A stretch of DNA of 64,000 nucleotides from Trypanosoma brucei (GCA_000002445.1 CP000070.1:288001-352000), one strand, 5' to 3'. Numbered from the stretch's first letter, positions 4,671-44,505 are shown. Notes: a model not told the origin generated them from the sequence alone. Numbers and translations are program-made.

Positions 4671-5758
4671 AAGAAGAATACGTCTCTGGACCGCGACAAC
4701 GCAAGACGCGGGAGGGGGGTGTTTTGGTGTGCTTTGCTGCGTTGTTATGTTTTCATTGTGTCTGTGTTTTTTATTGTTTCTATTTTTACCGAGTACTCAG
4801 CACTGACTTGAGGCAATCAGTGGAGTTGAGGTTGAAAGGGAGGGCCGCGGAAGCTGCTCAGAGAGATGCAAGAACCGAATTTGCGCTCCCTTGCGGGGGT
4901 GCATTGTCTCTCCCCTTTTGGTGCAAGTTCCACACATATCGTACCCGCCGTTTATCTTGGACGTGGAAGCAAATCCAACGTCTGCCACGGACGGGCACTC
5001 GTACTATCCGCGAACCCTGTTGTCGCGGCCTCCAGTTGCATAATGAGCGAAGAAGTGTGGTGTAGAGGGTTTTTCTTCTCAAGAAACCGAAGCACCTCTC
5101 AGATAGTTGGTTAAATAGTGTGGTTTACTGTCTTCGTAGTCTCCACAAATGACGTTATTGCAGTAGATTCAGTTTGCTTCATTCCTTTGGCCGTTGTGGA
5201 AAGTTTCGTCCATATTTGTATGCGTGTTTTAGTGGAGTCGGGTTGGCATTTAGAAGCGCGCTCGCGGAGAGGACAGACGGGGTCAATAGGGATGCAAAGA
5301 TTTTACGTGATCTGATTTACAAATATTCATTTTGTATTGATCGAAGGATCCAGTTACACCATACACACCCGTATTTCCCTTTTTGCATGGTGCTCACATT
5401 ATGATGGCCTCTTTTTTTTTTTTGCGTTCTCTGCTTAACAATCGGTGCATTTACACACTTACTTGCACTGTCGACGAGTAAATATACTTCATTCTTTTTG
5501 CGCTGCTAGGTGCACTTGTTTGTAGGGTTGTACGTATTCATTTCTGCCGTTGTGGCATCGTTATATTTCAGTTGAATTTCTTTTCGCCCGTAGTTTGCCA
5601 CTCCCTCCGGATTGTACCGTCTCTTGACACCACAAGAAATAGTTGAGAGTTTGTTTGCCTTCCGCGCAGAGGCTTCTGCTATTTAAAGAGGGAGACTCTA
5701 GTGGACACTTCCCTTGCATCTGCCTTAATCGGCTGACGCGCGTGGGCCTCTCACTGTT

Positions 5759-8700: not shown

Positions 8701-9862
8701 CCGTGACGAGGAGGATGCCTCGGTTACCGCTAGCAAACGGTCTCGTGTCTCGGCGGACGTTTCAACTTCTCTTGTGCTACGCTGCGTGGGGAGTTCCAAC
8801 GCCCCTCGTGCTGTTCGCTGTATGTTGACTTTACGTATTGCCGCTCTTGCATCTGCAGCAGGTATTTCTCTTAACGCTCAGTCACTGGTCTCGTGCATGC
8901 ACAACTTCGTAATGCGAAGGAGTCAACCAAATGGTATCTTCAATGGCGTGCCATGGTGTGACGTGTTGGGGTGGCACAGTAACCTGATGACACGTGCAAG
9001 GAGGGCGTCGTGGGCAATGCGCGACGTACAGTTTCTCCACGCTGCGTGCCTACAGGCTCTACTTGCACAAGGGGAGTGGCCGGAGGCCCTTCTTTTATTA
9101 CCGAGGGTTGAGATCCCTTTCGCAAGTGACTACTGTCGGGAGGGAAGCAAGACCGGGACCCGTGGCTTCAAGAGTTGTGTCATGTCTCTCCTGGCGCTGT
9201 GCGCGTCGGATCGCACCCGAAGTTGCCGTGACACTGCAGCTACGTTGATCGAAATGGTTAGACGTCGAACATCTGAAAGGGAGATGTGCCCCACGTGGGA
9301 CGGGACGGTGACTAAACTGTGTCAAATTGCGTGTGTTGAGCCTCCCATTTACCGCGGCCGTGATGAAAAATCGCGTACACCGCTTTTTCGCGATTGTGCC
9401 CCCTCATTCCCCCAACCTGCGCCTGATGCGGAGGGGGAACTCTTGATTCGGCTAGGATCAACTGCGTTGTCATACAATCATCCGCGCTACAGTCACGAGG
9501 CATTGGTCAAGAGGTTGGAGGCGCGCGTTGCGAGGCTTCGGAGCGAAGTTGCGGTGACTCTTGCAATAACGTGTACTGGCACTGAGGAGCCGCAGCGGGG
9601 CCATGAGGGAGAAAAACACTGCCGGCCGTCGCTGATACGAGTGTGCGAGCGCACCTCCGTGGGACTTCACCGATCGCGGGTTGTCTGGTCGCAGAATACG
9701 TTGATGAGGGAGGAAACTGACCCGAGTCATGCAAGGGTGCATGATGAGGCGGCGAGGTCTCTCTTGGACACGCGGCTTGCCAGTGTTATGGTGCCGCTAC
9801 GCCGTCTCGAGAGGATCCGTGCAGAAAAGCATCACCGACACGACGGGGGCAAGAAGTGGTAA
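5759..9862 (+). CDS. large hypothetical protein (1367 aa as drawn; true start may be an internal Met such as 5924)
   Basis: Single uninterrupted 4.1 kb ORF on the polycistron strand, with protein-like composition. No motif that I can name from sequence alone. Confidence 0.6.
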   Translation: MLTCGDPSPLSEKAPACTTETHKVLVLVQIRGGSAGVFWRTERGQNLPFFFVSQRMRGSNRAQLSALFSIVSAATHPGVRAGRIPCVTQVTAPNDATAPSATALRPEKSHLTWQEALCEMEGLHEMSVPVRSAVALHEFLTSEAKKLGCDAAQRGELRRRAGVFCAKDNARPPRWSSGVFAGDDSRVNGRKLKDVLVEEMEGCRAWATECIQKMGSAAGIDQTRCALKPVGGAGEPFEEICGAVACFAGEESGVVESFALASVLLNHLRPMRRCLVELARDAWEEALNVCEQFLNSDDAISSALGAELFRCVASVAPSNSRVKLLSLYVHQRRNQLLSNLKDLPNLFRFCSLRCFDEEELLNWRRKLREQMQAMLDIIREMDALDVERAQEFKRACSLGRRAAVNMVPAGGYSQEHHGSHSNRFSFSSPASLSRNMEKRGCGVECEEGKKSVQVREISAKGAEYVKGNVEGLDNTSRSGNRFTSSEMAVVSSCWQRTALETWRKQRGSAIRMLCSQDGKEAKEGGQGKQFRVELGHHEACRADVAEGPHRTPLSRLRATISGGCKDYSDLLTALCSWVRENRRDLNETCYMTFVLEIVVFIFVCELRPSVGVAALSQLTSLLVQFRKEQVVNNSVNLFTEPLTVGLAAAALRTSMEAARRGTVRGGIAIDPEDVGNSPFLKDVAALLFEVRLPHMLRQTVSILRDGYFTSPLETIGAPPPLGFSNEFYQHTGVIAVLVRMAACRNMRPTVSPDFPTVPIQPVAFLIELTEVVGESAILMLREIPLRRKKPIPGVLNEALWGLFVPFAAWLLHNGESLAGELPVDGVRRLLKLCEAVVADLAARWNYSVVPTRRRWISMEKPVVSLFTQEYVADEVTRRKVVSFASLLEGILSAALRFFPNIFSEARGFSRVCSAVAIILHDVDTHTAHQIMEFLLRLSPPPEQMDCSAHHAVVRCLSAMRHGCTLWMQAVHHYTQTLRTIIRDEEDASVTASKRSRVSADVSTSLVLRCVGSSNAPRAVRCMLTLRIAALASAAGISLNAQSLVSCMHNFVMRRSQPNGIFNGVPWCDVLGWHSNLMTRARRASWAMRDVQFLHAACLQALLAQGEWPEALLLLPRVEIPFASDYCREGSKTGTRGFKSCVMSLLALCASDRTRSCRDTAATLIEMVRRRTSEREMCPTWDGTVTKLCQIACVEPPIYRGRDEKSRTPLFRDCAPSFPQPAPDAEGELLIRLGSTALSYNHPRYSHEALVKRLEARVARLRSEVAVTLAITCTGTEEPQRGHEGEKHCRPSLIRVCERTSVGLHRSRVVWSQNTLMREETDPSHARVHDEAARSLLDTRLASVMVPLRRLERIRAEKHHRHDGGKKW

Positions 9863-10234
9863 CAAGGAGGAGTGTGTAGGGAGTGAGTGACTCGTGTGTG
9901 GTGCATAATACCTGTTTATGCGCGTTTCGGTGTAAAGGGGGTACAAGTGGAGTTCTCTGATGACATTGCATGAAATACACACTTAATGCGGGCGCTACTT
10001 GGATATTCTGTTGCCTACCCTTTCACTACCTTGCTTCGCTGGAGGCAAGTTTGTTGACCTTTTTCAAGTTTGTGGAAATTGTGCGTCTGCCTACGCGGAG
10101 AGAACAACAACTAGTAGCGATACACGGTCGGCGTCAGGGGCAAAAACAAGAAAAAAGAGGAAGGTTTTGCTTAACGAATGCTGTGCCGTAGCCCGTGCTG
10201 CGCGGCACCTGTCTTCTGCCGTATTGTCGATATT

Positions 10235-10570
10235 ATGCGGCAGCGTGAACCTTACGCGCGTCCAGGTATTCTTTACCCTATCCGCGTGGAATTGGGTGAC
10301 CGTGTGGATAAGTGTACCCCGCATGAGTTGCAGGAGCTTATTGACACGATGCTTGCTCGATCTCAGCGGTACGGCACAGTCAAAACAGGGACGGTATATA
10401 ATGTGAATCAGTCTGTGGCAACGGAAATTAGGGCGTATGGACGCTACGTAGTGACGGGAAACATGCGCGGTGGCTACATCAAGGGGGATCATCGATACGG
10501 CCCGCGCTTGACGGGATATAGTGGGGCAACAACGAAACCAGGACTTAAATGGAACGGGGAGGACTTATGA
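10235..10570 (+). CDS. candidate small protein (about 111 aa; ORF opens at 10178)
   Basis: ORF in the 1 kb gap between two + strand genes. Balanced, non-repetitive composition (…GILYPIRVELGDRVDKCTPHELQELIDTMLARSQRYG…). A 133-aa antisense ORF covers it. Weak call. Confidence 0.3.
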   Translation: MRQREPYARPGILYPIRVELGDRVDKCTPHELQELIDTMLARSQRYGTVKTGTVYNVNQSVATEIRAYGRYVVTGNMRGGYIKGDHRYGPRLTGYSGATTKPGLKWNGEDL

Positions 10571-10872
10571 AACCGCAATCGATTACCGTCCCTTCGAATA
10601 TGCCTTCCTCTCCAGTCTGAAAACAGCGCGATCAAACAGTTTGAGTAGTTTGAAAAGTTGGCTTTCGGCCTGGGTTGCCTCTCATCCCAGGTTTCCTTGT
10701 TGATAACCTCCGCATTATTTGAAAATTGTATGTGTGCTGCCACTCGAATGTGTACATCTATGTGTTGTGGTCCCGTTTGCATTTGCACTCATGTTTCCTG
10801 CAAGGGATCAGCCATAAACTGGACCCCTGTTCAAGATAGGTTTACCATACTGAAAAGAAAAAGAAAAAGGAG

Positions 10873-11427
10873 GTGCAGCTCCGCAGTTTAGACGGCATTG
10901 GACCATTACCACACCGAAGCGGAAAAGTTGCACATAGGTGTTCTGTTATGATTACAGAGGGCGCCGCTACACCCTGTGCCGAGGTGCCGGCGATTCGCCG
11001 TGTTCGGCGAACTCGTTCACGCTTTGAGCGTCTCGTCCGCCCTGAGGATGTCGCCCCCGGTGAGCCAACCCCTAGTGTGGAGGGATGGGTCCTATTCCTC
11101 ACCAACTTACCACCCAACACCACGATGGACCACATCACTGATCTTTTTGTTACGCGTGAGGGTGAGGGACTCTGGAACGTGCGGGAAGTGAAAATGCCCC
11201 TTGATAAAAATTGTGAATGTTGCGGTTATGCACTGGTGGAATTGGAAAAGCGCGAAGCCTTCGAGGCCGCATTGCGAGATATGGAAGGAATGACGTTGTC
11301 CTTCGCTGAGGGTGAACCACCAAACGGCGAGGACGCGTGGCGTCTTCACATAGCTCCGACATTCCTCGGCGAGAAGGACGACGAAGAAGAGGAGTTGGTG
11401 GCGGGAGGAAAACGGGAGCGTGAGTAG
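10873..11427 (+). CDS. Y14: Y14/RBM8A-like RRM protein (exon-junction-complex type)
   Basis: RRM core EGWVLFLTNL…DHITDLF…CGYALVELEKREAFEAALRDMEGMTL parallels human Y14 EGWILFVTGV…[25 protein letters not shown]. The real start may be the internal Met near 10948. Confidence 0.65.
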   Translation: MQLRSLDGIGPLPHRSGKVAHRCSVMITEGAATPCAEVPAIRRVRRTRSRFERLVRPEDVAPGEPTPSVEGWVLFLTNLPPNTTMDHITDLFVTREGEGLWNVREVKMPLDKNCECCGYALVELEKREAFEAALRDMEGMTLSFAEGEPPNGEDAWRLHIAPTFLGEKDDEEEELVAGGKRERE

Positions 11428-12548
11428 GCTTTCCCCATGCGCTTATACCACAATGGCTTCAGCGTATTTCTGTCTGTTGGTATTTGTGGGATGTCGCGCC
11501 ATCTCAGATTTCCCGTTATCTTTTCCAGCTGGACGATACCCAGTGTGTGCTTCTTTACATCTTTTCTTCTTTCTTCTTTTAGTGGGCCATTCTTGTAACT
11601 GAAGGCGGTGATGGTGGTGTGATAGTTTGCGAAGCGGCGTGTGCACGGAACAAGAACAAGCGAAGAAGAGGAAACAACATCACGTGTTGGAAGTGCCACT
11701 GGGGCAAAGGGGCGTAGAGTTGGGGGAATATTCAGGGAATCGGCCTGGAATAGCCTTCGTACTTCTCTTTGATTTGGTTGGGTGCCGTGTTTTAAATTTA
11801 TCTTTGGTCACCACTATTAGTGATCGAGGGTTGCGATCGGTTGGAATACGAGTGCCTCGTGGGCTTCCTGTTGACAGACCCGACGTAGCACAAAGAAACC
11901 TCACACCTTTATTCCTTCCCTATTCTTCCTCACTCATACCCAGTTTGGGGAACTTAGGGTAGTGCACCCTTCCTCCACGTCGTTTATAGGGGTGTGAAGG
12001 TGAGGACGGCTGTGGGCGTTGTTTGTGGTGCTAAAAAGTTCGTTGACGACATGGCCACTACTCGGGCGCCAAACTCCGGTACAAACCCAAATGGCGTCGG
12101 CACGTGCCCCGGAGGGAAGGATACACAAGAAGCAACAAGCCTGCCGTTTGCGGCGTTTCAGCTAGTTATGGCGGCGCTATTCATACTTAGTGGATTTGCT
12201 GTAAAGCGGATGAGGCGTCTGTCGGAACTACGGGCGCAGCAGCGCCACGAGCGACTTGGACGGGTGGAAGTGGGGTTTGGTATGGAGAGCGGTTCAACCA
12301 GATTAGTGATCTGACCTCACTGTGCGTTTGTTTGTGAGTATGTTCTGTCAGTTGTTTTTTCCTGCGGGACTCGCATAATGTGAGGTGGCTGGTGAGGGCG
12401 AATACCGCGGCCCTCGTTGTTTGTTTGCTTGCGACGGTGTTTGGTCGAGTCGCAACAATACCGATGTTTCGGGTTGCAGCGCGCGTTTCGTCGTGACTGC
12501 TCTGCGCTGCAATCGGTAACGGGTGTGAATGAGGGGCGGGCGACCGAG

Positions 12549-12619
12549 GCGCAGTTGGTCTAGTGGTAGAATTCTCGCCTGCCACGCGGGAGGCCCGGGT
12601 TCGATTCCCGGACTGCGCA
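12549..12619 (+). tRNA. tRNA-Gly (anticodon GCC)
   Basis: 71 nt. Acceptor stem GCGCAGT/ACTGCGC with discriminator A. A box TGGTCTAGTGG and B box GGTTCGATTCC. Anticodon loop CTGCCAC. Near-identical to the canonical eukaryotic tRNA-Gly-GCC body (TAGAATTCTCGCCTGCCACGCGGGAGGCCCGGGTTCGATTCCCGG). Confidence 0.92.
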
Positions 12620-12621
12620 CG

Positions 12622-12626
12622 TTTTT
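12622..12626 (+). terminator. T5 run immediately 3' of the tRNA (Pol III terminator)
   Basis: gTTTTTc two nucleotides after the discriminator base. Confidence 0.5.
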
Positions 12627-12937
12627 CTCCCATCTTGTCGTTTTGCATTTGGGTTCTTCCGGCCGAGGTGTTGTTAGCGACAGCGGGAGGGGAAGCAAAG
12701 AAAGTGGGAAAATGGAAAAAAAAAGAGGTGTATGAGTCATGCGCAAAGCGAAGGGATGGTGTGTTACCTCGGATATGTGTCCCGGTAACTGTTTTATTTC
12801 ACCCGAAATCACATACTTGATTTGTTTTCCACCATATGTTAGTTGTTGCGACTTTCCTTCTGGCTCCACCTCCTGATTAGTATCCAGTGTTTTTTTTTTT
12901 GCGGTAAAACATCGGAGTTTGGTGGCTCACCCACCGA

Positions 12938-13450
12938 ATGCAACGATACAAGGAGGGCAGATCCGGCGCTTACACCGAAACTTATCATAAGCTGCTGGGA
13001 AAGTCTCCATGGATTGTCATCCGCAACATTGAGCACCCTGGTGGCCCAAACAAAAGGAATAGGGAGAAGGTCGCTGCTGGCGGTAACGATCTTAACGCTA
13101 ATGACGATGAGTGTTGCTCCACATCACTCTCCGAGGGGGATATAGCAACTGTTTTCTCGCAGTTTGGTGAGGTGATTGATGTGAGGCTTGTGCGTCACCA
13201 GCGCACAGGCCGGTTCCTTGGCACTGCCTTTGTTAAGTTTGAAGACTACCGAAGTGCCATTTTAGCTGCGGATGAGATGAACTCCAACCATGAAAAGGGT
13301 AAGGAAGTTTCACTAACCACAACCGGGAGGGCACCATCGCAGCGGGGGATTGAGGTGGCCCGATGCGAGGAAGTTGAAGTTTGTGCGCTTCCTAGTGGCG
13401 CCGAGTCGTATGCGGAGTGGTTGAGTCGGGTTGTGTTGGAAGCGAGGTGA
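12938..13450 (+). CDS. RRM-domain protein, RBMX2/Snu17(Ist3)-like
   Basis: SPWIVIRNIEHPGG … EGDIATVFSQFGEVIDVRLVRHQRTGRFLGTAFVKFEDYRSAILAADEMN matches the RBMX2 pattern (AWIFVGGLPY…[50 protein letters not shown]). There is a roughly 30-aa acidic insertion between RNP-2 and the rest. The start may lie upstream of the annotated Met. Confidence 0.6.
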   Translation: MQRYKEGRSGAYTETYHKLLGKSPWIVIRNIEHPGGPNKRNREKVAAGGNDLNANDDECCSTSLSEGDIATVFSQFGEVIDVRLVRHQRTGRFLGTAFVKFEDYRSAILAADEMNSNHEKGKEVSLTTTGRAPSQRGIEVARCEEVEVCALPSGAESYAEWLSRVVLEAR

Positions 13451-13822
13451 AAAAATTGGGAGTGGAAAAAGGGGAATGGATGACAGTCTCCGTCACTCAT
13501 GTTGCCATGGTTGTGCTTCCTTTTTTTTTCGCGTGTCTGCCATTTTGCCGCGGTGGTTTCTGCCACCGAAATGGGCGTGTTTCGTCTCTGCTCCGCAGGG
13601 GGAGGGAGCGAGGTGAACAGAAATTGGTGCACCTACACCCTTGCGAAGAGGGTATTGAACGTAATACGCGAAGCACAACTCTTTATCTTTGTTTTCTTTC
13701 ACGCTTGATACCTCTTGTCTGTTAGAGCGTCTATGCCCTTTCTTTTTTTTTCTCGGTTGCTTTCCTTCTTCAAATATCAAGGTGCCTTTGCTACCTGTGG
13801 GCGTTCACAAGATAGCTGTAAG

Positions 13823-13846
13823 TATATATATATATATATATATATA
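13823..13846. repeat. (TA)12 microsatellite
   Basis: Direct read. Confidence 0.9.
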
Positions 13847-14006
13847 GGTACATATCTGCTCTTCCCTACCACCCGTGCGGTACGTGGTGAGAAGTTGGCG
13901 TTTGGAGGGAACAGACGCAGGGAAAGGAGCGCCAAGGGCAGTGACAACTAAGCCAAAAGAAGAGACACGAGGGGATTGAGGGCACCCTTCACTTAGTTTT
14001 GTTTCA

Positions 14007-17000
14007 TTGCCGCTTAGTTTTGTTTTCCCCATTGGGTATCGCACACTTCCAAGCACACAATTCGTCCTGCTGGCTCATCTTCAGGACGGCAGAGGGCCAT
14101 CGGCTCCGATGCGTCCATTAGTTGAGCGTTTTCTAAGGGGGGACAACAGTGTCCTATCGCAGATCCTTATGCGGGTTGAATCTCAGGGCGATCCAACATT
14201 CGGAGATAGCAGCGAACGGCTCTACAACCGGCTTATAGAAATGCTTGTTCATGAGGGTCGACGGGCATCAGGATCCGCACGCGGAAGCCCCAGTAACAAA
14301 GAAAATTGTTTTGTAGCCATACGCGTATTCAATATTATCTTCGAGCGGGCTGGAGTTGACGCTCCGGTTCTGCGTCGATGTCTTACGGAGTCCGGATCAA
14401 ACAACGCTCGTATGATGAATTTAGATCACTACTTCTCTCAACAGGGGCACATGAATATGCATGTAGCTCGCTTTGCATTGACTTTGACCAAGATTTATCG
14501 CATTTCTGTTGAGACCCTTTTGACAGCCGCGCCAAACATTGTCCACGTGGAGAGGCTTGCAGGAAGTAGGGAAAACTCCAATGCACAATCATCAGCGAGC
14601 AGCCACGACGATAACGTTTCCCCAATGCGCGGCACGTTCAGTGCTGCACGGAGTAATTTAAGGGGGGAGGGACGTTCGGTTTCCAACCCTCGTGCTGGTC
14701 GCGGTGCAGACGGCGCTCGTGTGGAGTTGTTTCAAGCGGTAGGCAACAGTAACAGACATTGGCGAGAACTACCTGATGCACCATCTTTTGTTCCTTTCAG
14801 TGTGAACCCACTGTACAGCGAAAATGTAGGTGCCTCAAACCACACGTGGATGCCGCCCCAGTTTCCAACTCCAGTATTGCTATTCTCACGGCACTTCGGG
14901 GCGGGTTGTGAAGCCAAACTTCCAATAATGGGCGCCATTACAGCTCAACAAACCGGAGAGCAGTTAGATGCGGAGGATGCGATAGCATCACCCACTCCGG
15001 AAAGGGTGGGCGACGGTGGTGAAGCAGTGGAAGAAGTAGTTGCAGGTGAGAAACCACCGGACCTGCTGTTGTCACGCTACCTGGCGAAAGGTGCAGTGCT
15101 TACGTGGGGTAACATTGCCTCCGTCAAAACAGGAAAGAAGTTACAACTAGCAAGCCCATCGGATGGCGAAAGCCCCCCACAAGGCTCGTACACGTTGTCA
15201 CCCACAAGGTTGGCCATTCCGGTTCCTGTGGTTTCTTTCAGCTGCGGCGCGTATTCATGTTATTTTGTGACAATGGAGAGAAAAATTCTAAGCTGTGGCA
15301 ATGACGATTGGGGTCAGTTAGGAGCTGGGAAGTCGAAGGACTCTCAGCCCCCTGGTGCAGTCAAGGGTAGCGAAGGGAAGTACCGACTCTACCGTGTGCC
15401 GCTCCGCAGTGGTGATCAAATATGTAAGTTAGCGGCTGGTTCTGCCTTCGCTGTCGCCATTGGTTTACGGAGTAGGCGCATGTATCTCTGGGGTCAAAAT
15501 TCATTCGGACAGTGCCTTGTTCACGAAGGTATGACTGTGCGAACACCCGTACTAGTGGACATCCCAGGACAATACACAGAGGTTGTGGATGTGGCTTGCG
15601 GGGGCTTCTACGCCGCACTATCTTTTACATGCGGCAGCGTAGGAACATGGGGGCTCTCCACAATGCTGGCAACAAATGTTTCACCAGATCAGCTTCGAGA
15701 TGCAGATGCACCGAACAACCAGAAGTGCGCTAAAACAATTAATTTGTTCAAACCACTAAACGAGAAGGTCGTTGCGCTTCGGGCGGGGCCGTGTCATTGT
15801 CTTGCGATAACGTCAAGTGGGGCCGTATATTCATGGGGTGTAGAGCGTAATGGGCGACTTGGGCACGGTAGTGGAAAAAATGAGGAGAAAATGCGCCTCA
15901 TTGACGCTCTAAGTAATCAAGTGGTTACGGATGCCAGCTGCGGCTCGTTTCACACAGCGGTTTTGACGAAGCAGGGACAAATTTTTGTCTTCGGTGAAAA
16001 TACATATGGTCAGTTGGGTCTCCCGACACGGCAACCACGTTTGCTACCGGAGATACTTCCGCTGCCCAAAAGGGCAATATCCGTTTCGTGTGGACGTGAG
16101 CACACTTGCATATTGTTAGAGGACGGCGACGTCATGGCATGTGGGAGCCTTCGATGCTCAGGTGTTGGCGTAGGTTTTGGTTCTCGCTTCGTGGCTCCGC
16201 GCCGAGCTGTACAAAACTATCTCATCCTAACTTTAGCTAGTGGTGATCTGCACGTGCTTGCAGCCGGGCTCCTACGCACTATGGCACTAACCGTAGTTCA
16301 AACTCCGCCGGAGTCACCAATACTTGACGACCTACCGAAAGTCAATGAAGTAGCTAGACGTCACGGTTTGCGCGGGGTTAGCGCCGGAAATGGGTTTACA
16401 ATAATTTTAGCGGAAACAGGTGAAGCCTTTTCTATTGGTCAGGGAGAAAATGGTCAGTTAGGGATGGGTGATACTTCGCTTTCACAAAAAACGGCACTTC
16501 GTAAAGTAGTTGTACCCGACTTTGAAGAGTTGTGTGCCGTGGAGTGTGGGTTTAACTTTGCCATTGCTATTGGCTCCTCCGGTGCCCTGTATAGTTGGGG
16601 CTGGAATACACATGGACAGCTCGGCCACGGTGTGGCCGTCAACTTAGGGGAAGCGGTCTTTACTCCTAAGGAGATTTCAGCGTTGAAGTCGCTTGCGCAA
16701 GTCGTTCAGGTTGCGTGTGGTGGTACTTTCGTAATTGCTCTTACTCAATGCGGGGAGGTGTATTCATGGGGAGAAACTCTGTACTGTGGTCATGGAACTG
16801 GAGGTGAGAGATGCCTAACAAACCCCAAGCGAATTGCGGCACTACAGGACATTGCGGCGGTTGCGGCAGGTGATAGGCATGCTGCTGCTGTTTCCTATGA
16901 CCATGTCATTTACGCGTGGGGTCGGGGTCCTGTTGGTGATGGTGGATCTCCATCCACTGTGGTGCCGGTTCCCGTAGCAGTGAAGTTTGCACACCCAGTG

Positions 17001-35933: not shown

Positions 35934-37418
35934 CACAGTTGAGGTGTGTGTCTATGTGTGTGTGTGTGTGTGTTAGGTGCAGGTGCGGGTACATGACATA
36001 ACTATTTTTTCCACCTTTCACTGCCCCATCGCGCGAGCATCGCATCGATTATGTGAAGCTACCCTTTGTATTTAACTACGCCTGTACATCTTCATACATT
36101 TACCGTTTTTTTTGTTTGCCCTTGCGCGAGGTATCGTGTCACACGTGTTTCTGTAACGCCTGTAGAATTGTTACGTATGGGCATCACCCATGAGAAACCA
36201 TCGCATCTAGGCGTGTGCCATCTGCTTTACCTCCCCACAAGAAAAAAATAATTACATCAAAACGTGCACAAATACATAACAGCGAAAAGTGCATTGAGGA
36301 GGATTGCCTTTATCTTTTTCTTCTTGTATTGAAGGCATGAACTAAGTGGTAGAACATTTGGTTGCGATCGTACCCCTCCACCCATTCAGCAACCGTTCAT
36401 GCTATTTTTACCTTGTTATCTTTCGTGCACATTTACACGCCTTCCCTCGTATATAATTTCTCTTCGTTTTTCATCTAGTTCTGTTTCTTCTGTTTTATTT
36501 TTTTTTTTTGCCCCCCTTGCACCATTAGCCCGTTCTTCATCGCATGAAATTGAAAATTCATGCAGTGAAACGGATGGCACCACTGCGACGACAAACATTG
36601 CTGTTATAATTGTTGTTTGTCACTTCACGTTCGGCCTCATTTCACTTCTCTTTCTCTCTTTTAACTGGGCAGTTTTAAGTCGTTTTCATTGTTTTGGTTT
36701 GGTCCCCTCGCTTACACTTAAATGAAGATAAACAACGAATGCGACCATGCCGCCCAATATTGCTGTTTCCTCGATGGTTTGTCGCAGACACTTCGCTGCA
36801 CGGCCATAAAATTTTGCTCGCTTCTTTTTCTCTTTTTTTTTTTAAGTACTATTCGTCTCGTCCTTTGTTGGTATTATATTTGTTGAAGGAGGAGAGTTAT
36901 GTGAGGAGGCCCTCTCAACCACTCAGCAAATTTCGAGGAAAAGGAAAAGATGTAGCAATTGGGATGCTTTGTGGGAATCGTTGCGTCTCTCACTTTGTTT
37001 TTTATTTTTATTTACTACTCTTTTTTTTTTTTTGAGAAGGCGTGTATTTCGAAGGAGGATAAATAGAAGTGATGAATATTTCAAATATCTCCTTGTATGT
37101 ATATATATATATATGCGGTTTACTTTAATAGTTCCTTCACTTGCTGTCCCCTCCCCCCTCTCTCTCTCTTTCTCTCTATTCTTTCCGTTTATTTGTATTA
37201 ACTTTTTGTGTTTCCGTAGTCTTATGATTAGACGTGTGTTCAAATAAACACGCAAGTGGTAACGTTGCATTCTACAATATTTCTGCTTTTGTGCACCTTT
37301 TATGGTACAGGTGTTGCTGAAGGTGCATAATAGAAGTACGGCCCACCATCATCACCACGTACGGTTTTCGTGATTCTGCGACTGGTGTCAACAAAAGGGA
37401 AGGGTACTCGAGGAGGAA

Positions 37419-38405
37419 ATGCAACGCCGCTTGCAGTGTTGTTTAATGCGTGTAGCGCGCTTACATTCGGCAGCATTGATGCATAATACAAATGGTTGGC
37501 TTATGATATCTTGCAGAACCGTACACATTACAGAGAGTGAGGCACAGTCGTTGGTACATTTGTCTGAGGCGCTTTTTTCTGATGAGGCAAATGCTCTGGG
37601 AGTATGTCTACCCGATACCAGCCTTAACCTTGACGGAGAAAGTGGGGAAGGGGATTTATATACTGAGACACTCACAACAGAGAAGTATATGGATGTGCTC
37701 GTTAGTTCACCAACACAAATAGATACGAGGGGAAATGTTTCTGCTTCATCAACGGATCTGATGATGCCGCTTACGCAAGCGGTGCAAGAACTGAAGTTAT
37801 GTCAGCAAAGAGAAGATCAGCGAGCCATTTCTGCAGCGCTTTCAACAGCCATGTGTGCGTTGATGGGAAGTAGTTCATCTCCTTCCAGTGCTGCTGCAGC
37901 TGAGTTATTGTTAGCCGGTGCAGACTTGAAAGCAATCATTTCTGATGGTACTATTCGACATATGTGCATTGAGGATAAATGCATGAGTCGATGTGATTTT
38001 TCCACTTTGTCACTACTTTCTGTACAGGCAAATCGCGTGGATTTCTCGCGCAGTCTCTTTTATGCTGCTGCCTTCCATAATTGTGTGTTTAGGAACTGCT
38101 CTTTTGAGGGGTGTGTACTGAAGGAACTCCGATGTTTAGGAGATGTGTGTTTTGATGGATGCTCCTTTTGTTTTGCGAACATATCGTTACGTATACCTCA
38201 TGAGAAACCGAGGCGTATTTCGGTATCTTCGGCTGCCACAGAAGGCGTGGGAAGGTATTCTGCGGAACATGCTGTGATATTTAACCGCTGTGATTTTGAC
38301 CTCTGTGATTTTGATGGTTGTGATACCCTTCCTGCATCTTGCTTTACGAACTGCACCAATACTCACCTCGCCGCCAAATTTTCGTCATGTGTGAGAACAT
38401 CATAA
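37419..38405 (+). CDS. Cys-rich pentapeptide-repeat-like protein, copy 1 (328 aa)
   Basis: C-terminal half has 5-residue periodicity with a central F/L and Cys at i-2: VDFSR SLFYA AAFHN CVFRN CSFEG CVLKE … VIFNR CDFDL CDFDG CD. The N-terminus is basic and Cys-rich. Confidence 0.7.
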   Translation: MQRRLQCCLMRVARLHSAALMHNTNGWLMISCRTVHITESEAQSLVHLSEALFSDEANALGVCLPDTSLNLDGESGEGDLYTETLTTEKYMDVLVSSPTQIDTRGNVSASSTDLMMPLTQAVQELKLCQQREDQRAISAALSTAMCALMGSSSSPSSAAAAELLLAGADLKAIISDGTIRHMCIEDKCMSRCDFSTLSLLSVQANRVDFSRSLFYAAAFHNCVFRNCSFEGCVLKELRCLGDVCFDGCSFCFANISLRIPHEKPRRISVSSAATEGVGRYSAEHAVIFNRCDFDLCDFDGCDTLPASCFTNCTNTHLAAKFSSCVRTS

Positions 38406-39526
38406 CTGTTGAAACTGCAAGATGAATGACACGAAATAAAGAAGCTTTCGGCTACTATTGGGTTGCCTTGCGTCTGTTTATTTGTTTCATTACTTGAACG
38501 CTTATGTCTGAAGAAGTGAAGGATGGGGTGGAATGTTAAAATGCAGACTAAAACTTTCCCCACGCGCTTAAATGCATTCACCATCAAGTGGGATCTGAAG
38601 GAATACTTATCATCCCCTTCAATTATTGGTACTCATCCATCAATACATGCAACCCAATCAGGTATTTACTCTCTGCTCCAAACAACAAGAATCAGTTACG
38701 TGCGTCATTGGATTTACACGTCCTCTCCTTTTTTTTTTCGTTCGTTTTCAAAATATTCATTTGAATGTGTTTTGACATTCTTCTGTATCATCATTACACT
38801 TTATCTGCAGCGATGAGGTTTGGGAAAAGGGAAAATGTACGAATGGCCGTGCGACTTGCTTCTTTCAGTTCCTTTAACCTTATTGAGTTTCCTTCATTGC
38901 TGTGTCGTGCTGTACACAACACTTTGTGTGCTGGTTGGAATTATGTGGGGATGTTTTTTTTTTTTGCATTTCCCTCTCCACACAGTAAGCCCCTCATCAT
39001 CATTTTCACATTTCTCATCAATCAACATTATAAATACCTGCCCATTGGGTTGTCTGTTACGTGATATGCGTGTAAAATATTCTGGTTCCTTCCTTTCGCA
39101 TGTTTCTGTGGATACTCGAATGTACATATATTTTTTCCTAATCATTTTCCATGCTATTTCTTCCCTATCACTCTTATGGGAAAGTTTGTTTGTCCTGTAC
39201 TTACGAAACCAAGCGCAAGTACATTAGTGTCATACCAATCAGAAAGGTTCGCAGTATTATTCTTATTCTTATTGTGCCCGTGGTATATATATATATATTT
39301 ATATATATACGTACATATATACACCTTTCTATTATTCTAGGTTGGTGCCTTTTTAAAAGTCTTCCCATTAGTTTTTTTTGTGAACATATCCCTATTACTA
39401 GCACTGCCACTGTTACTGTTTGGCTCCTTCTTTGAGTGAGCGCCTGCATCCATTTAAGTGTATATTTATTATTTTTTCGGAAACCACAACCAATTGAACG
39501 ACTACTAAAAGCAAACCAAACAAAAG

Positions 39527-40228
39527 ATGATGGAAAGTATGAACCTTGAACAACCACCACGACTAAACGCCGACCCCTGGCGAGATATGGAGCCAAAGGT
39601 GGATGCAATGCTAGGCGATCTACTCATGATATCTGAGCGTTTCCGAAGGATCGTAAATCCGACAGTGTCTGATGCAGATGAATTAATTGAAGCCATCAAC
39701 TCTGTGGGTGGAGAAGTTGAGACGATGCGGGTCGCTTTAGACACTACGATTGAGCGGCCGGAACTCTTTTCTGTAGATGCGGAAGAATTGAAAAGACGCA
39801 CGGAGAAAACTCGCTCGTGGGAGCGCGATGTTGCGAAAGCCATCGAGTTGCGATCAAAGATATTATCAAACCGTGAAGGGCAAATACAGGATCCACTTGA
39901 GAGTAACGTAATGACACCAAATACATGGGTTGATTTGGACACAACTCATATTCATCCATCAGCTCAGTCGTCGCATATGCCAATGAATAGTTGTGAAGCG
40001 ACTACTGACACATCTGTTGGTGTTGTTGAGTCTCAAGCTCTTATGCCAGTTGGAATACCCATACGTGAGCAAACAGTGAAGGCATCCGAATACTCAACCG
40101 CAAGTGTCGAGGTGCATACAGTGGATGATGTGGATGATCCCAATAATGAGGGATCTCTACTAAAGTACGTATTGGTTATCCTCTTAGTATCATCCATTCT
40201 TGTAGCAATATCGTTGATTTTCTTCTGA
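39527..40228 (+). CDS. tail-anchored membrane protein, copy 1 (233 aa)
   Basis: Soluble helical/acidic body with a single C-terminal hydrophobic segment LVILLVSSILVAISLIFF as the last residues. No signal peptide. Confidence 0.65.
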   Translation: MMESMNLEQPPRLNADPWRDMEPKVDAMLGDLLMISERFRRIVNPTVSDADELIEAINSVGGEVETMRVALDTTIERPELFSVDAEELKRRTEKTRSWERDVAKAIELRSKILSNREGQIQDPLESNVMTPNTWVDLDTTHIHPSAQSSHMPMNSCEATTDTSVGVVESQALMPVGIPIREQTVKASEYSTASVEVHTVDDVDDPNNEGSLLKYVLVILLVSSILVAISLIFF

Positions 40229-41640
40229 TTTTTTGATACTGAACTTTATCTCCTCTAATTGTTTCTTTTTGCGTGACTATCCTTCATCCTATGTTAAACG
40301 AAAGTAGGAGCTTATGTTTACGTATGTAGGTGCGCATTTTCTTTGTGGAAATATGTATGCATGCGTGTGGTTTTCTTTTTCATTAAAGCCTGCGAGGTGA
40401 ATGATGGAGTTTTGCTTCATATTTTATACAGAGATTGCTTAATTTGTCTTTCAGTTTCTAACTGTTTTTACCTTTTATTTCATTTATCGTAATGAAAGCC
40501 TACACTGAGCACAAGATACAAACAAGCGGTGTAGGGGAATGCTGCAAGTAACATTTGTAGTTTAAAAGTTATAACTGCAACTGAAAAGTCTCCCAATGGG
40601 CGCAGAAAGGTTTACAAACTTTACAGCTCTAAGAGCTTTCGCAGAAGCATATGCGCAAACGATTTTGTCGCCCAATATTTGGTGCTGGTACGTTACATGT
40701 GAAAAGTTCAATGATATCTGAAGTAAGGGAAATGACATCCGTATTTCTCTCGGATGGGGGGGGGGGGAAAGAAGCTTGGTTTCACATGTTCGGGTTAATC
40801 CTTGATATCCTTCAGCGTAATAAGACATAAATTCATCCTCAGCTCTGTCGAACAGGCGCGAGCGAAGGTTTTGGAATGAATGTTGGGCTCTCACGTAATG
40901 CAACCCCAATCCTTTTCAACGTTGCAAAATGACTTAAGGACAACTGCTTTGATAAAGATGGGGTATACACGAAAACTCACTGTTGAAGCGGGAACACAGG
41001 CATTTGATTAAAAGATAGTTAAGAATGATGAAAGGCGACAACTATAAAATGCAGGAAAATATTATGTTAGCCGCGGGAGCAGGTTTAATGAAGGGCGATC
41101 GAGTAACATAAATGGAAAACAGCGGCGAGTACATGGACCACTTAAATAAATGACAAAAGTGCAGCACCTTGCGCAATTGAAAGAGATGCTTTGTGGGAAT
41201 CGTTGCGTCTCTCACTTTGTTTTTTATTTTTATTTACTACTCTTTTTTTTTTTTTGAGAAGGCGTGTATTTCGAAGGAGGATAAATAGAAGTGATGAATA
41301 TTTCAAATATCTCCTTGTATGTATATATATATATATGCGGTTTACTTTAATAGTTCCTTCACTTGCTGTCCCCTCCCCCCTCTCTCTCTCTTTCTCTCTA
41401 TTCTTTCCGTTTATTTGTATTAACTTTTTGTGTTTCCGTAGTCTTATGATTAGACGTGTGTTCAAATAAACACGCAAGTGGTAACGTTGCATTCTACAAT
41501 ATTTCTGCTTTTGTGCACCTTTTATGGTACAGGTGTTGCTGAAGGTGCATAATAGAAGTACGGCCCACCATCATCACCACGTACGGTTTTCGTGATTCTG
41601 CGACTGGTGTCAACAAAAGGGAAGGGTACTCGAGGAGGAA

Positions 41641-42627
41641 ATGCAACGCCGCTTGCAGTGTTGTTTAATGCGTGTAGCGCGCTTACATTCGGCAGCATTG
41701 ATGCATAATACAAATGGTTGGCTTATGATATCTTGCAGAACCGTACGCATTACAGAGAGTGAGGCACAGTCGTTGGTACATTTGTCTGAGGCGCTTTTTT
41801 CTGATGAGGCAAATGCTCTGGGAGTATGTCTACCCGATACCAGCCTTAACCTTGACGGAGAAAGTGGGGAAGGGGATTTATATACTGAGACACTCACAAC
41901 AGAGAAGTATATGGATGTGCTCGTTAGTTCACCAACACAAATAGATACGAGGGGAAATGTTTCTGCTTCATCAACGGATCTGATGATGCCGCTTACGCAA
42001 GCGGTGCAAGAACTGAAGTTATGTCAGCAAAGAGAAGATCAGCGAGCCATTTCTGCAGCGCTTTCAACAGCCATGTGTGCGTTGATGGGAAGTAGTTCAT
42101 CTCCTTCCAGTGCTGCTGCAGCTGAGTTATTGTTAGCCGGTGCAGACTTGAAAGCAATCATTTCTGATGGTACTATTCGACATATGTGCATTGAGGATAA
42201 ATGCATGAGTCGATGTGATTTTTCCACTTTGTCACTACTTTCTGTACAGGCAAATCGCGTGGATTTCTCGCGCAGTCTCTTTTATGCTGCTGCCTTCCAT
42301 AATTGTGTGTTTAGGAACTGCTCTTTTGAGGGGTGTGTACTGAAGGAACTCCGATGTTTAGGAGATGTGTGTTTTGATGGATGCTCCTTTTGTTTTGCGA
42401 ACATATCGTTACGTATACCTCATGAGAAACCGAGGCGTATTTCGGTATCTTCGGCTGCCACAGAAGGCGTGGGAAGGTATTCTGCGGAACATGCTGTGAT
42501 ATTTAACCGCTGTGATTTTGACCTCTGTGATTTTGATGGTTGTGATACCCTTCCTGCATCTTGCTTTACGAACTGCACCAATACTCACCTCGCCGCCAAA
42601 TTTTCGTCATGTGTGAGAACATCATAA
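41641..42627 (+). CDS. Cys-rich pentapeptide-repeat-like protein, copy 2 (328 aa; one aa difference from copy 1: H36R)
   Basis: Same as copy 1. Confidence 0.7.
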   Translation: MQRRLQCCLMRVARLHSAALMHNTNGWLMISCRTVRITESEAQSLVHLSEALFSDEANALGVCLPDTSLNLDGESGEGDLYTETLTTEKYMDVLVSSPTQIDTRGNVSASSTDLMMPLTQAVQELKLCQQREDQRAISAALSTAMCALMGSSSSPSSAAAAELLLAGADLKAIISDGTIRHMCIEDKCMSRCDFSTLSLLSVQANRVDFSRSLFYAAAFHNCVFRNCSFEGCVLKELRCLGDVCFDGCSFCFANISLRIPHEKPRRISVSSAATEGVGRYSAEHAVIFNRCDFDLCDFDGCDTLPASCFTNCTNTHLAAKFSSCVRTS

Positions 42628-43745
42628 CTGTTGAAACTGCAAGATGAATGACACGAAATAAAGAAGCTTTCGGCTACTATTGGGTTGCCTTGCGTCTGTT
42701 TATTTGTTTCATTACTTGAACGCTTATGTCTGAAGAAGTGAAGGATGGGGTGGAATGTTAAAATGCAGACTAAAACTTTCCCCACGCGCTTAAATGCATT
42801 CACCATCAAGTGGGATCTGAAGGAATACTTATCATCCCCTTCAATTATTGGTACTCATCCATCAATACATGCAACCCAATCAGGTATTTACTCTCTGCTC
42901 CAAACAACAAGAATCAGTTACGTGCGTCATTGGATTTACACGTCCTCTCCTTTTTTTTTCGTTCGTTTTCAAAATATTCATTTGAATGTGTTTTGACATT
43001 CTTCTGTATCATCATTACACTTTATCTGCAGCGATGAGGATTGGGAAAAGGGAAAATGTACGAATGGCCGTGCGACTTGCTTCTTTCAGTTCCTTTAACC
43101 TTATTGAGTTTCCTTCATTGCTGTGTCGTGCTGTACACAACACTTTGTGTGCTGGTTGGAATTATGTGGGGATGTTTTTTTTTTTTGCATTTCCCTCTCC
43201 ACACAGTAAGCCCCTCATCATCATTTTCACATTTCTCATCAATCAACATTATAAATACCTGCCCATTGGGTTGTCTGTTACGTGATATGCGTGTAAAATA
43301 TTCTGGTTCCTTCCTTTCGCATGTTTCTGTGGATACTCGAATGTACATATATTTTTTCCTAATCATTTTCCATGCTATTTCTTCCCTATCACTCTCATGG
43401 GAAAGTTTGTTTGTCCTGTACTTACGAAACCAAGCGCAAGTACATTAGTGTCATACCAATCAGAAAGGTTCGCAGTATTATTCTTATTCTTATTGTGCCC
43501 GTGATATTTATATATATTTATATATATACGTACATATATACACCTTTCTATTATTCTAGGTTGGTGCCTTTTTAAAAGTCTTCCCATTAGTTTTTTTTGT
43601 GAACATATCCCTATTACTAGCACTGCCACTGTTACTGTTTGGCTCCTTCTTTGAGTGAGCGCCTGCATCCATTTAAGTGTATATTTATTATTTTTTCGGA
43701 AACCACAACCAATTGAACGACTACTAAAGGCAAACCAAACAAAAG

Positions 43746-44447
43746 ATGATGGAAAGTATGAACCTTGAACAACCACCACGACTAAACGCCGACCCCTGGC
43801 GAGATATGGAGCCAAAGGTGGATGCAATGCTAGGCGATCTACTCATGATATCTGAGCGTTTCCGAAGGATCGTAAATCCGACAGTGTCTGATGCAGATGA
43901 ATTAATTGAAGCCATCAACTCTGTGGGTGGAGAAGTTGAGACGATGCGGGTCGCTTTAGACACTACGATTGAGCGGCCGGAACTCTTTTCTGTAGATGCG
44001 GAAGAATTGAAAAGACGCACGGAGAAAACTCGCTCGTGGGAGCGCGATGTTGCGAAAGCCATCGAGTTGCGATCAAAGATATTATCAAACCGTGAAGGGC
44101 AAATACAGGATCCACTTGAGAGTAACGTAATGACACCAAATACATGGGTTGATTTGGACACAACTCATATCCATCCATCAGCTCAGTCGTCGCATATGCC
44201 AATGAATAGTTGTGAAGCGACTACTGACACATCTGTTGGTGTTGTTGAGTCTCAAGCTCTTATGCCAGTTGGAATACCCATACGTGAGCAAACAGTGAAG
44301 GCATCCGAATACTCAACCGCAAGTGTCGAGGTGCATACAGTGGATGATGTGGATGATAGTAGGAGCTCTAATTCTGCTAAGAAGACGGTCTTGATTATAT
44401 TTTTTGCATCGTCTCTTCTTGTGGCTATACTGGTGATTTTCTTTTGA
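43746..44447 (+). CDS. tail-anchored membrane protein, copy 2 (233 aa; divergent C-terminal 28 residues)
   Basis: Identical to copy 1 up to …TVDDVDD, then SRSSNSAKKTVLIIFFASSLLVAILVIFF versus PNNEGSLLKYVLVILLVSSILVAISLIFF. Same length. Confidence 0.65.
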   Translation: MMESMNLEQPPRLNADPWRDMEPKVDAMLGDLLMISERFRRIVNPTVSDADELIEAINSVGGEVETMRVALDTTIERPELFSVDAEELKRRTEKTRSWERDVAKAIELRSKILSNREGQIQDPLESNVMTPNTWVDLDTTHIHPSAQSSHMPMNSCEATTDTSVGVVESQALMPVGIPIREQTVKASEYSTASVEVHTVDDVDDSRSSNSAKKTVLIIFFASSLLVAILVIFF

Positions 44448-44505
44448 TTTTTTGATACTGAACCTTATCCGCTCTAATTGTTTCTTTCTGTTCGCTTGTT
44501 GTTAC

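Follow-up and report, generated by a model that had tools for sequence, protein, structure and literature searches.

A predicted pentapeptide-repeat protein of kinetoplastid mitochondria with a near-invariant cysteine column, encoded by a tandem gene pair in Trypanosoma brucei

We analysed a 64,000-nucleotide stretch of the Trypanosoma brucei genome (GCA_000002445.1 CP000070.1:288001-352000), here called the window, in which an initial annotation made from the sequence alone had marked an open reading frame (ORF) at positions 37419-38405. The ORF lies exactly there on the + strand, running from ATG to TAA and encoding 328 amino acids (aa). It was identified as Tb927.7.1250, and its translation is identical to XP_845749 of T. 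brucei TREU927 (P0011; UniProt Q57WS5). The product is best explained, with a probability of about 0.6 for the explanation as a whole, as a kinetoplastid-wide, mitochondrially imported pentapeptide-repeat protein made from two tandem nuclear gene copies. Most of its Cys would occupy the inward-facing position i-2 of the repeat, counted from the central residue i, where Ala, Cys, Ser, Thr and Val are interchangeable. Four of them (C227, C248, C291 and C312), joined by position 207 in most orthologues, would form a buried stack that stabilises one corner of the helix, and this column is unlikely to bind metal or to form disulfides. The protein would serve as a rigid, non-catalytic module for docking, with two faces of conserved exposed residues as its contact to a mitochondrial partner, and the process concerned would most likely, though on weak evidence, be maintenance of the kinetoplast DNA (kDNA). 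The gene, its expression, mitochondrial import, periodicity, conservation and synteny stand on data presented here or published elsewhere; the fold is predicted, and burial and stacking of the Cys column, the binding mechanism, matrix location and the kDNA link are inferred.

Repeat layout and predicted fold

Pentapeptide-repeat proteins are abundant in bacteria, but a function is known for few of them, and they are seldom encountered in eukaryotes. In residues 165-328 of the T. brucei protein, pairs of Phe or Leu at a lag of five residues occur 13 times, compared with 4.2±1.7 in shuffled sequences (none of 20,000 shuffles reached 13; p<5e-5), and Cys pairs at the same lag occur six times, against 1.4±1.1 in the shuffles (p≈0.001). 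The repeat region can be read in register as 24 pentads, arranged in two blocks (aa 172-257 and 286-321) that are parted by a non-repeat loop of 28 residues (aa 258-285) and interrupted by two one-residue register shifts, at 237-242 and 301-306. The pentad centre is Phe or Leu in 16 of the 24 pentads and Ile or Met in another five, while i-2 is A, C, S, V or G in 17. An array of at least eight repeats with a central Leu or Phe and a small residue at i-2, as is typical of the pentapeptide-repeat family, is thus present.

The C-terminal half of the protein consists of Cys to 10.7%. Cys is found at i-2 in only eight of the 24 pentads (C192, C222, C227, C232, C248, C291, C296 and C312), and six further Cys lie off this position, five at i-1 (183, 188, 239, 244 and 308) and one at i+1 (251). 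Unbroken runs of C-x-F/L-x-x are restricted to residues 222-236 (three pentads) and 291-305 (two to three pentads). The initial annotation had described a near-perfect C-x-F/L-x-x pattern over about 100 residues. Its five-residue periodicity clearly exceeds that of shuffled sequences; the near-perfect Cys pattern was an overstatement, given the eight i-2 Cys, the two register shifts, the intervening loop and the shortness of the two perfect runs.

Homologues were recovered from T. vivax, T. grayi, T. melophagium, Leishmania, Phytomonas, Angomonas, Bodo saltans and several further assemblies, and all named ones are kinetoplastids. Among the best 8000 candidates of a homologue search with the family alignment, Bodo saltans was the only addition, and an exhaustive profile search returned, past about 27 clusters, only generic pentapeptide proteins that matched over the repeat region alone. 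When the homologues were aligned, the periodicity was kept in all 33 of them.

On its own, the T. brucei sequence scores below threshold against the Pfam models Pentapeptide_3, Pentapeptide_4 and Pentapeptide. At the level of the family the signal is clear: the Pfam pentapeptide models (PF00805/PF13599/PF13576) match 24-25 of 26 homologues at E≤0.01, with a best value of 4.8e-10, and PF00805/PF13599 domains are precomputed for the Leishmania orthologues, whose sources call them pentapeptide-repeat proteins. Likewise, a search of the PDB with the T. brucei sequence alone gave weak matches to HalA and MfpA, and the family profile found MfpA as the best match (E=2e-13 for the Mycobacterium smegmatis protein and 3.5e-8 for that of M. 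tuberculosis). AlphaFold2 (AF2) prediction from an alignment of 10 sequences reached a predicted local distance difference test score (pLDDT) of 89-98 over aa 140-260. With 26 sequences, the mean pLDDT was 80, the predicted template modelling score was 0.75, and the repeats had pLDDT values of 94-98. The predicted structure is a beta-helix, right-handed and quadrilateral, with four pentads per coil. Family-level Pfam matches, profile search and AF2 models therefore all back the beta-helix that the initial annotation had proposed from the repeat and had suggested checking by structure prediction, and we assign the protein, as a prediction, to the pentapeptide-repeat quadrilateral beta-helix fold.

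Outside the repeats, the protein comprises several distinct parts (Table 1). In the N-terminal helix (aa 39-60), S49, D55 and E56 do not vary in alignment A1 and L48, A51 and A57 hardly do, and the segment is predicted as helical with a pLDDT of 92-94 in the AF2 model from the deeper alignment. The acidic linker that follows is net negative in almost all homologues and varies from 17 to 202 residues in length. The helical cap is predicted to contain helices at 118-131, 134-149 and 155-165 (DSSP), and it leads into G167, D169 and A172, which are invariant or nearly so in the alignments. Block 2 with its C-terminal cap holds a large set of residues that are invariant in A1, namely F288, C291, F293, D294, L295, F298, F309, C312, N314, T315, A318 and F321. 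The motif of the N-terminal helix and the C-terminal CxNTxLAxxF cap are family-specific.

The cysteine column

In solved pentapeptide proteins, the side chains of i and i-2 pack into the helix's interior, and the consensus of the repeat is [A/C/S/T/V][D/N][L/F][S/T/R][G/R] (PMC2964730). Cys is thus already part of the i-2 consensus, contrary to the initial suggestion that it takes the place of the usual A, S or T. In QnrA1, i-2 Cys occur in 9-10 pentads, with three pentads in a row and pairs at a distance of 20 residues among them, and single Cys→Ser changes leave function unaffected (PMC2964730). Among 119 other pentapeptide proteins, a sample biased by its retrieval with the family profile, Cys accounts for 13% of i-2 residues, second only to Ala, and about 9% of the proteins have Cys at one third or more of their i-2 positions. 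In addition, half of the i-2 Cys of T. brucei (C192, C222, C232 and C296) are exchanged for A, S or V in orthologues, and C301 is usually Ser in homologues. A Cys-rich i-2 position is therefore a known flavour of the pentapeptide fold and faces the core, not the surface.

Four Cys behave differently. C227, C248, C291 and C312 are nearly invariant across the 33 kinetoplastid homologues (counts in Table 1), and the equivalent of position 207, which is Val in T. brucei, is Cys in 22 of the 33. The four are spaced by 21, 43 and 21 residues, which amounts to one coil apiece if the hexapeptide shifts and the loop are left out of the count. In the homologue with the shortest loop (P0032), the equivalent of C291 follows that of C248 by 22 residues, or about one coil. 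With such coil-length spacings, the column Cys should stack on the same corner of successive coils. Invariance is just as complete for the central Phe of the same coils (33 of 33 for F224, F229 and F288), and the column Cys probably form a buried stack within a highly conserved core.

A ladder of Cys on one face, binding metal or stapled by disulfides, had been the central idea of the initial annotation. What survives of it is a single, nearly invariant and probably buried column. The surface ladder with metal or disulfides is not supported, since i-2 side chains point inward, the i-2 Cys of QnrA1 tolerate replacement by Ser, Cys is common at i-2 in the family, and four of the eight i-2 Cys in T. 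brucei vary. The protein belongs, as yet uncharacterised, to a known fold family and does not represent a novel class of metal- or disulfide-ladder proteins.

Mitochondrial location and candidate functions

The N-terminus carries the features of a mitochondrial presequence. Residues 1-36 have a net charge of +5 and the first acidic residue is at position 39; residues 37-113 have a net charge of -14, so that the basic character ascribed to the N-terminal third is confined to its first 36 residues. Arg-rich N-termini are shared by the Trypanosoma, Leishmania and Bodo saltans orthologues, and the first 25 residues are free of acidic residues in 16 of the 25 orthologues listed. In the mitochondrial import data of Peikert et al. 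2017 (PMC5436138), Tb927.7.1250 belongs to the mitochondrial reference set and is positive in both TargetP and MitoFates, and its twin Tb927.7.1270 is flagged as a member of the ATOM40-dependent importome. The whole-cell abundance ratio of the Tb927.7.1270/1250 protein group after ATOM40 RNA interference (RNAi) was 0.64 (p≈0.03; PMC5436138). Supplements of the same study tie Q57WS3 (35.7 kDa) to Tb927.7.1270;Tb927.7.1250 and report mass spectrometric (MS) detection of this group with five peptides and 19% coverage. The proposal of an organellar presequence is thus supported, and the protein would presumably reside in the matrix.

Conservation of exposed residues in the repeats is uneven. Faces 3 and 0 reach 2.8 and 2.5 bits, compared with 1.7 bits for the other two faces, and the conserved exposed residues of the two faces are D193, S195, D208, S210, R211, Y215, G231, K235, D294 and L295. 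The protein has no catalytic signature. With two adjacent conserved faces and a family-specific N-terminal helix and C-terminal cap, a docking module is favoured. PDB sequence searches revealed no solved trypanosomatid complex that includes this protein, and it is accordingly absent from the modelled parts of the mitoribosome, the respiratory chain and the editosome in deposited structures. The process concerned is suggested by weak matches in a genome-wide RNAi screen for kDNA loss (PMC13191291 ST3), together with the proximity to the gyrase-interacting MfpA. In this screen, Tb927.7.1270 appears in the induced-versus-day-0 list (logFC 1.66, false discovery rate (FDR) 0.005) and Tb927.7.1250 in the induced-versus-uninduced list (logFC 2.29, P 0.007, FDR 0.075), and both point to a link with kDNA maintenance.

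Several points weigh against the explanation as a mitochondrial pentapeptide-repeat docking module with a buried Cys column. The T. brucei sequence alone does not reach the gathering scores of the three Pfam models (22.4 vs 27, 19.0 vs 38 and 14.8 vs 20.2 bits). D or N at i-1, a consensus preference of pentapeptide proteins (A[D/N]LXX) and not a strict requirement, occurs in only five of the 24 pentads (193, 208, 254, 292 and 297), and the low scores against the hidden Markov models arise because D/N is rare there. Burial and stacking of the four Cys are deduced from where they fall in the repeat and from how the fold is known to be built. The near-total invariance of the column exceeds strict packing needs, as Ala or Ser would fit. 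Full-text searches with the gene identifiers and UniProt accessions found Tb927.7.1250 and Tb927.7.1270 in the main text of none of the papers searched; guessed Leishmania identifiers gave no full-text matches, the term 'pentapeptide repeat' combined with T. brucei led to papers on procyclin and PEX5 only, and the diplonemid mitoproteome paper mentions neither the two genes nor pentapeptide repeats. As for the screen, its authors caution that false positives abound in the two lists (1852 and 436 genes; PMC13191291), neither gene is in their 132-gene overlap, and reads are not cleanly assignable between copies that are 98.6% identical.

Mitochondrial topoisomerase II decatenates and re-attaches the kDNA minicircles, and the bacterial MfpA and Qnr proteins suggest a regulator whose beta-helix mimics DNA and thereby binds, modulates or protects this enzyme. 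MfpA is the best profile match among solved structures, the protein is mitochondrial and found across kinetoplastids, the clade with kDNA, and its richness in i-2 Cys recalls QnrA1. RNAi fragments of the gene pair are moreover enriched in sorted cells without kDNA, with one identifier per comparison (PMC13191291). Close likeness is common to all pentapeptide proteins, however, so that nearness to MfpA carries little information; the screen, as set out above, offers weak evidence. The MfpA and Qnr DNA mimics are strongly and consistently acidic. By contrast, the net charge, taken here as the sum over the two repeat blocks and not from a surface map, is -3 in T. brucei (-1 and -2), +8 and +11 in Leishmania, and ranges from -6 to +11 over the 33 homologues. 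Such a near-neutral surface, with a charge that is not conserved, argues against DNA mimicry. Nor do the models contain a C-terminal dimerisation helix of the MfpA/EfsQnr type, by way of which MfpA and Qnr build rod-shaped dimers, as DSSP assigns no helix of at least four residues past aa 173 in either of them; both are models of monomers, and dimerisation by another route is possible. On balance we consider a DNA-mimicking regulator unlikely. Contact with nucleic acid could take another form, given that the pentapeptide protein HalA binds a 5-nt oligodeoxyadenylate at its subunit interfaces (PMC13434031). A beta-helix resembling the cytoplasmic domain of HalA might accordingly bind mitochondrial single-stranded DNA or RNA, for instance kDNA replication intermediates or guide RNAs, and many homologues have a basic loop 258-285, with a charge of up to +7. 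The loop is conserved in neither sequence, length nor charge, and the likeness to HalA is confined to generic pentapeptide repeats, which makes this alternative very improbable.

Two further alternatives assign a chemical role to the Cys. Peikert et al. list Tb927.7.1250/1270 as motif-predicted (Cx9C/Cx3C) putative MIA substrates (PMC5436138), from which one would derive a protein of the intermembrane space that is oxidatively folded by the ERV1/MIA-type pathway, with disulfides stapling the beta-helix. The motifs are indeed present, Cx9C at 222-232 and 291-301 and Cx3C at 188-192, 244-248 and 308-312, in a C-terminal half with 10.7% Cys. They follow automatically from the pentad register: Cx9C arises from two i-2 Cys that lie two pentads apart, and Cx3C from an i-1 Cys followed by the next i-2 Cys. 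The earlier listing as an intermembrane-space candidate is a by-product of the five-residue repeat. The MIA list in Supplementary Data 9b of that study also contains other repeat proteins such as UMSBP1/2, whose CCHC zinc knuckles yield periodic Cx9C, and repeat proteins are evidently caught when motifs alone are used for prediction. Conservation is lacking in the partner residues C244 and C308 and in C222 (Cys in 15 of 33 homologues), C232 (19 of 33) and C301 (mostly Ser), so that in the pairs 222/232 and 291/301 only C291 is retained, and the Cx9C partners lie on different corners of one coil. The fold is a beta-helix and not a CHCH helix-loop-helix, two programs predict a presequence, which classical MIA substrates lack, and Tb927.7.1250/1270 have no entry in the portion of the ERV1-knockdown table considered here (PMC5436138 Supplementary Data 8). 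Oxidative folding in the intermembrane space is, in our estimate, improbable. Lower still do we rate a functional metal, Fe-S or redox-active site in the Cys ladder, the idea of the initial annotation. It would account for four stacked Cys in 30-33 of 33 homologues in a protein that accepts Ala, Ser or Val at other i-2 positions, and mitochondria are the site of Fe-S biogenesis. But i-2 side chains are directed into a tightly packed core, and, from the geometry of the fold, a linear stack with a rise of about 4.8 Å would offer no tetrahedral arrangement of ligands. His or Asp partners and known cluster motifs are missing, the only Pfam matches are pentapeptide models, and the equally invariant central Phe indicate that invariance of the Cys may simply reflect a conserved core. 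Such a site is the least credible of the alternatives.

A mitochondrial pentapeptide-repeat protein with core Cys, acting as a docking module, thus remains our preferred explanation, and a 'conserved hypothetical' protein of kinetoplastid-wide occurrence is hereby assigned a predicted fold, a compartment and a conserved surface. A bolder version, which we regard as quite unlikely, would make it a kinetoplastid-specific factor of kDNA maintenance that docks on the mitochondrial type II topoisomerase or a replication enzyme, i.e. a eukaryotic counterpart of MfpA/Qnr, in which the Cys column provides redox tuning of helix rigidity or stability. If a role in kDNA maintenance is true, the topoisomerase-interacting pentapeptide proteins would gain their first organellar relative. 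If that hypothesis fails, an ordinary structural repeat protein would be left.

Gene pair, locus and relation to known systems

A twin of the gene, Tb927.7.1270, lies downstream on the same strand at 41641-42627. The two proteins are 99.7% identical (tblastn), with H36R as the sole difference, and the translation of the twin is identical to XP_845751 (P0012; UniProt Q57WS3). The copies belong to tandem duplication units with a period of about 4222 bp (repeat search), which are 98.6% identical over 3310 nt (blastn). So close a match points to a recent duplication or to gene conversion that is still going on. Tb927.7.1250/1270 is a real, expressed nuclear gene pair, and we rejected a chance ORF at 37419-38405, as the protein is seen by MS, conserved and syntenic.

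Each unit contains, in addition, a 233-aa ORF at 39527-40228 and 43746-44447, respectively (Tb927.7.1260/1280; Q57WS2, 26 kDa), which has no Pfam match and a hydrophobic C-terminal tail. Tb927.7.1260 carries the TrypTag descriptor 'patches' (PMC9981465, supplementary file 15), and, unlike Tb927.7.1260, neither Tb927.7.1250 nor Tb927.7.1270 is among the entries of the TrypTag supplements considered here. Among the neighbours, the ORF with a DAGK domain is the sphingosine kinase (SPHK) gene Tb927.7.1240, and the EMC7 ORF is Tb927.7.1290, followed by a thioredoxin/ERp29 protein disulfide isomerase (PDI). These identities fit the assignment of Tb927.7.1250/1270. All plausible genes of the region share the + strand, the arrangement to be expected of a trypanosome polycistron. 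Short ORFs of 83-135 aa that overlap or flank the gene on both strands between 36399 and 39608, for example 37388-37675 (-), look mechanical and are of low complexity or located in intergenic T/C-rich sequence.

The gene order is preserved in a distant kinetoplastid. A contig (L001; Logan SRR7085473) encodes a homologue with 29% identity and has the order SPHK, pentapeptide gene, homologue of the 233-aa ORF, EMC7 and PDI. This shared gene order indicates that the family is orthologous across a deep kinetoplastid divergence. The syntenic spans are 5181-14276 in the contig and 33543-47869 in the window. The contig is very compact (GC 54%, intergenic spacers of about 70-250 bp) and has an oxysterol-binding-protein gene and a 248-aa ORF as extra insertions; its homologue of the 233-aa ORF lies at 11421-12158, in syntenic position, with 33% identity.

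Table 1. Protein parts, cysteine codons, gene copies and duplication units, with positions counted in the window
Feature	Position	Strand	Remarks
Gene copy 1, Tb927.7.1250, Q57WS5	37419..38405	+	328 aa + stop; mitochondrial pentapeptide-repeat protein
Predicted mitochondrial presequence, basic and acid-free, aa 1-36	37419..37526	+	Net +5; first acidic residue aa 39
Conserved amphipathic helix, motif L-S-x-A-L-x-x-D-E-A, aa 39-60	37533..37598	+	Alignment A1 and model
Acidic linker of variable length, low confidence, aa 61-116	37599..37766	+	pLDDT 48-79
Helical cap, aa 117-171, into G167-x-D169-x-x-A172	37767..37931	+	DSSP; pLDDT 93-96
Predicted beta-helix block 1, aa 172-257	37932..38189	+	17 pentads (~4 coils); hexapeptide shift 237-242
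Codon C227, Cys column member 1 (i-2, 'face 3')	38097..38099	+	Cys in 33/33 homologues
Codon C248, column member 2	38160..38162	+	Cys in 33/33 homologues; 21 residues past C227 = coil + hexapeptide shift
Non-repeat loop within the helix, aa 258-285	38190..38273	+	pLDDT 51-61; 7-53 residues among homologues
Predicted beta-helix block 2 with C-terminal cap C-x-N-T-x-L-A-x-x-F, aa 286-321	38274..38381	+	Pentad table; pLDDT 85-95
Codon C291, column member 3	38289..38291	+	Cys in 32/33 homologues
Codon C312, column member 4	38352..38354	+	Cys in 30/33 homologues
Gene copy 2, Tb927.7.1270, Q57WS3	41641..42627	+	tblastn; translation match to P0012
Duplication unit 1	36963..40268		Holds Tb927.7.1250 and the 233-aa gene Tb927.7.1260
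Duplication unit 2	41185..44487		Holds Tb927.7.1270 and Tb927.7.1280

We finally compared the protein with known systems. Like the twin Cx9C/Cx3C proteins (CHCH proteins and small TIMs), it contains Cx9C and Cx3C spacings, but it differs from them in its beta-helix, its lack of conserved partner Cys, its size of 35.7 kDa and its predicted presequence. The Arabidopsis thylakoid-lumen protein TL15 (3n90) and the luminal domain of SV2A/B/C belong to other compartments, whereas here the compartment is the mitochondrion, and no specific sequence relationship to either is detectable past the repeat. With the pentapeptide family in general (Rfr32, 2g0y; the Clostridium botulinum pentapeptide-repeat protein, 6fls; Np275/276), it shares tandem five-residue repeats with a central Phe or Leu and a small inward i-2 residue. 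It departs from that family in its divergent repeats, with D/N at i-1 in 5/24 and scores below all three gathering thresholds. Further differences are its eukaryotic origin, its mitochondrial location and the addition of a presequence, acidic linker, conserved N-terminal helix and helical cap. The single nearly invariant Cys column and the CxNTxLAxxF cap likewise set the kinetoplastid proteins apart. MfpA, Qnr, AlbG and McbG, pentapeptide proteins that protect topoisomerases, are the closest solved relatives by profile (MfpA, E=2e-13). QnrA1 has a similar wealth of i-2 Cys, among them Cys pentads that are stacked or follow one another. Unlike MfpA/Qnr, the T. brucei protein has a near-neutral helix whose charge is not conserved, no predicted C-terminal dimerisation helix, and extra N-terminal domains. 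Compared with these proteins, topoisomerase binding is putative for T. brucei, and, on weak screen evidence, a context of DNA topology, here that of the kDNA, may be common to both.

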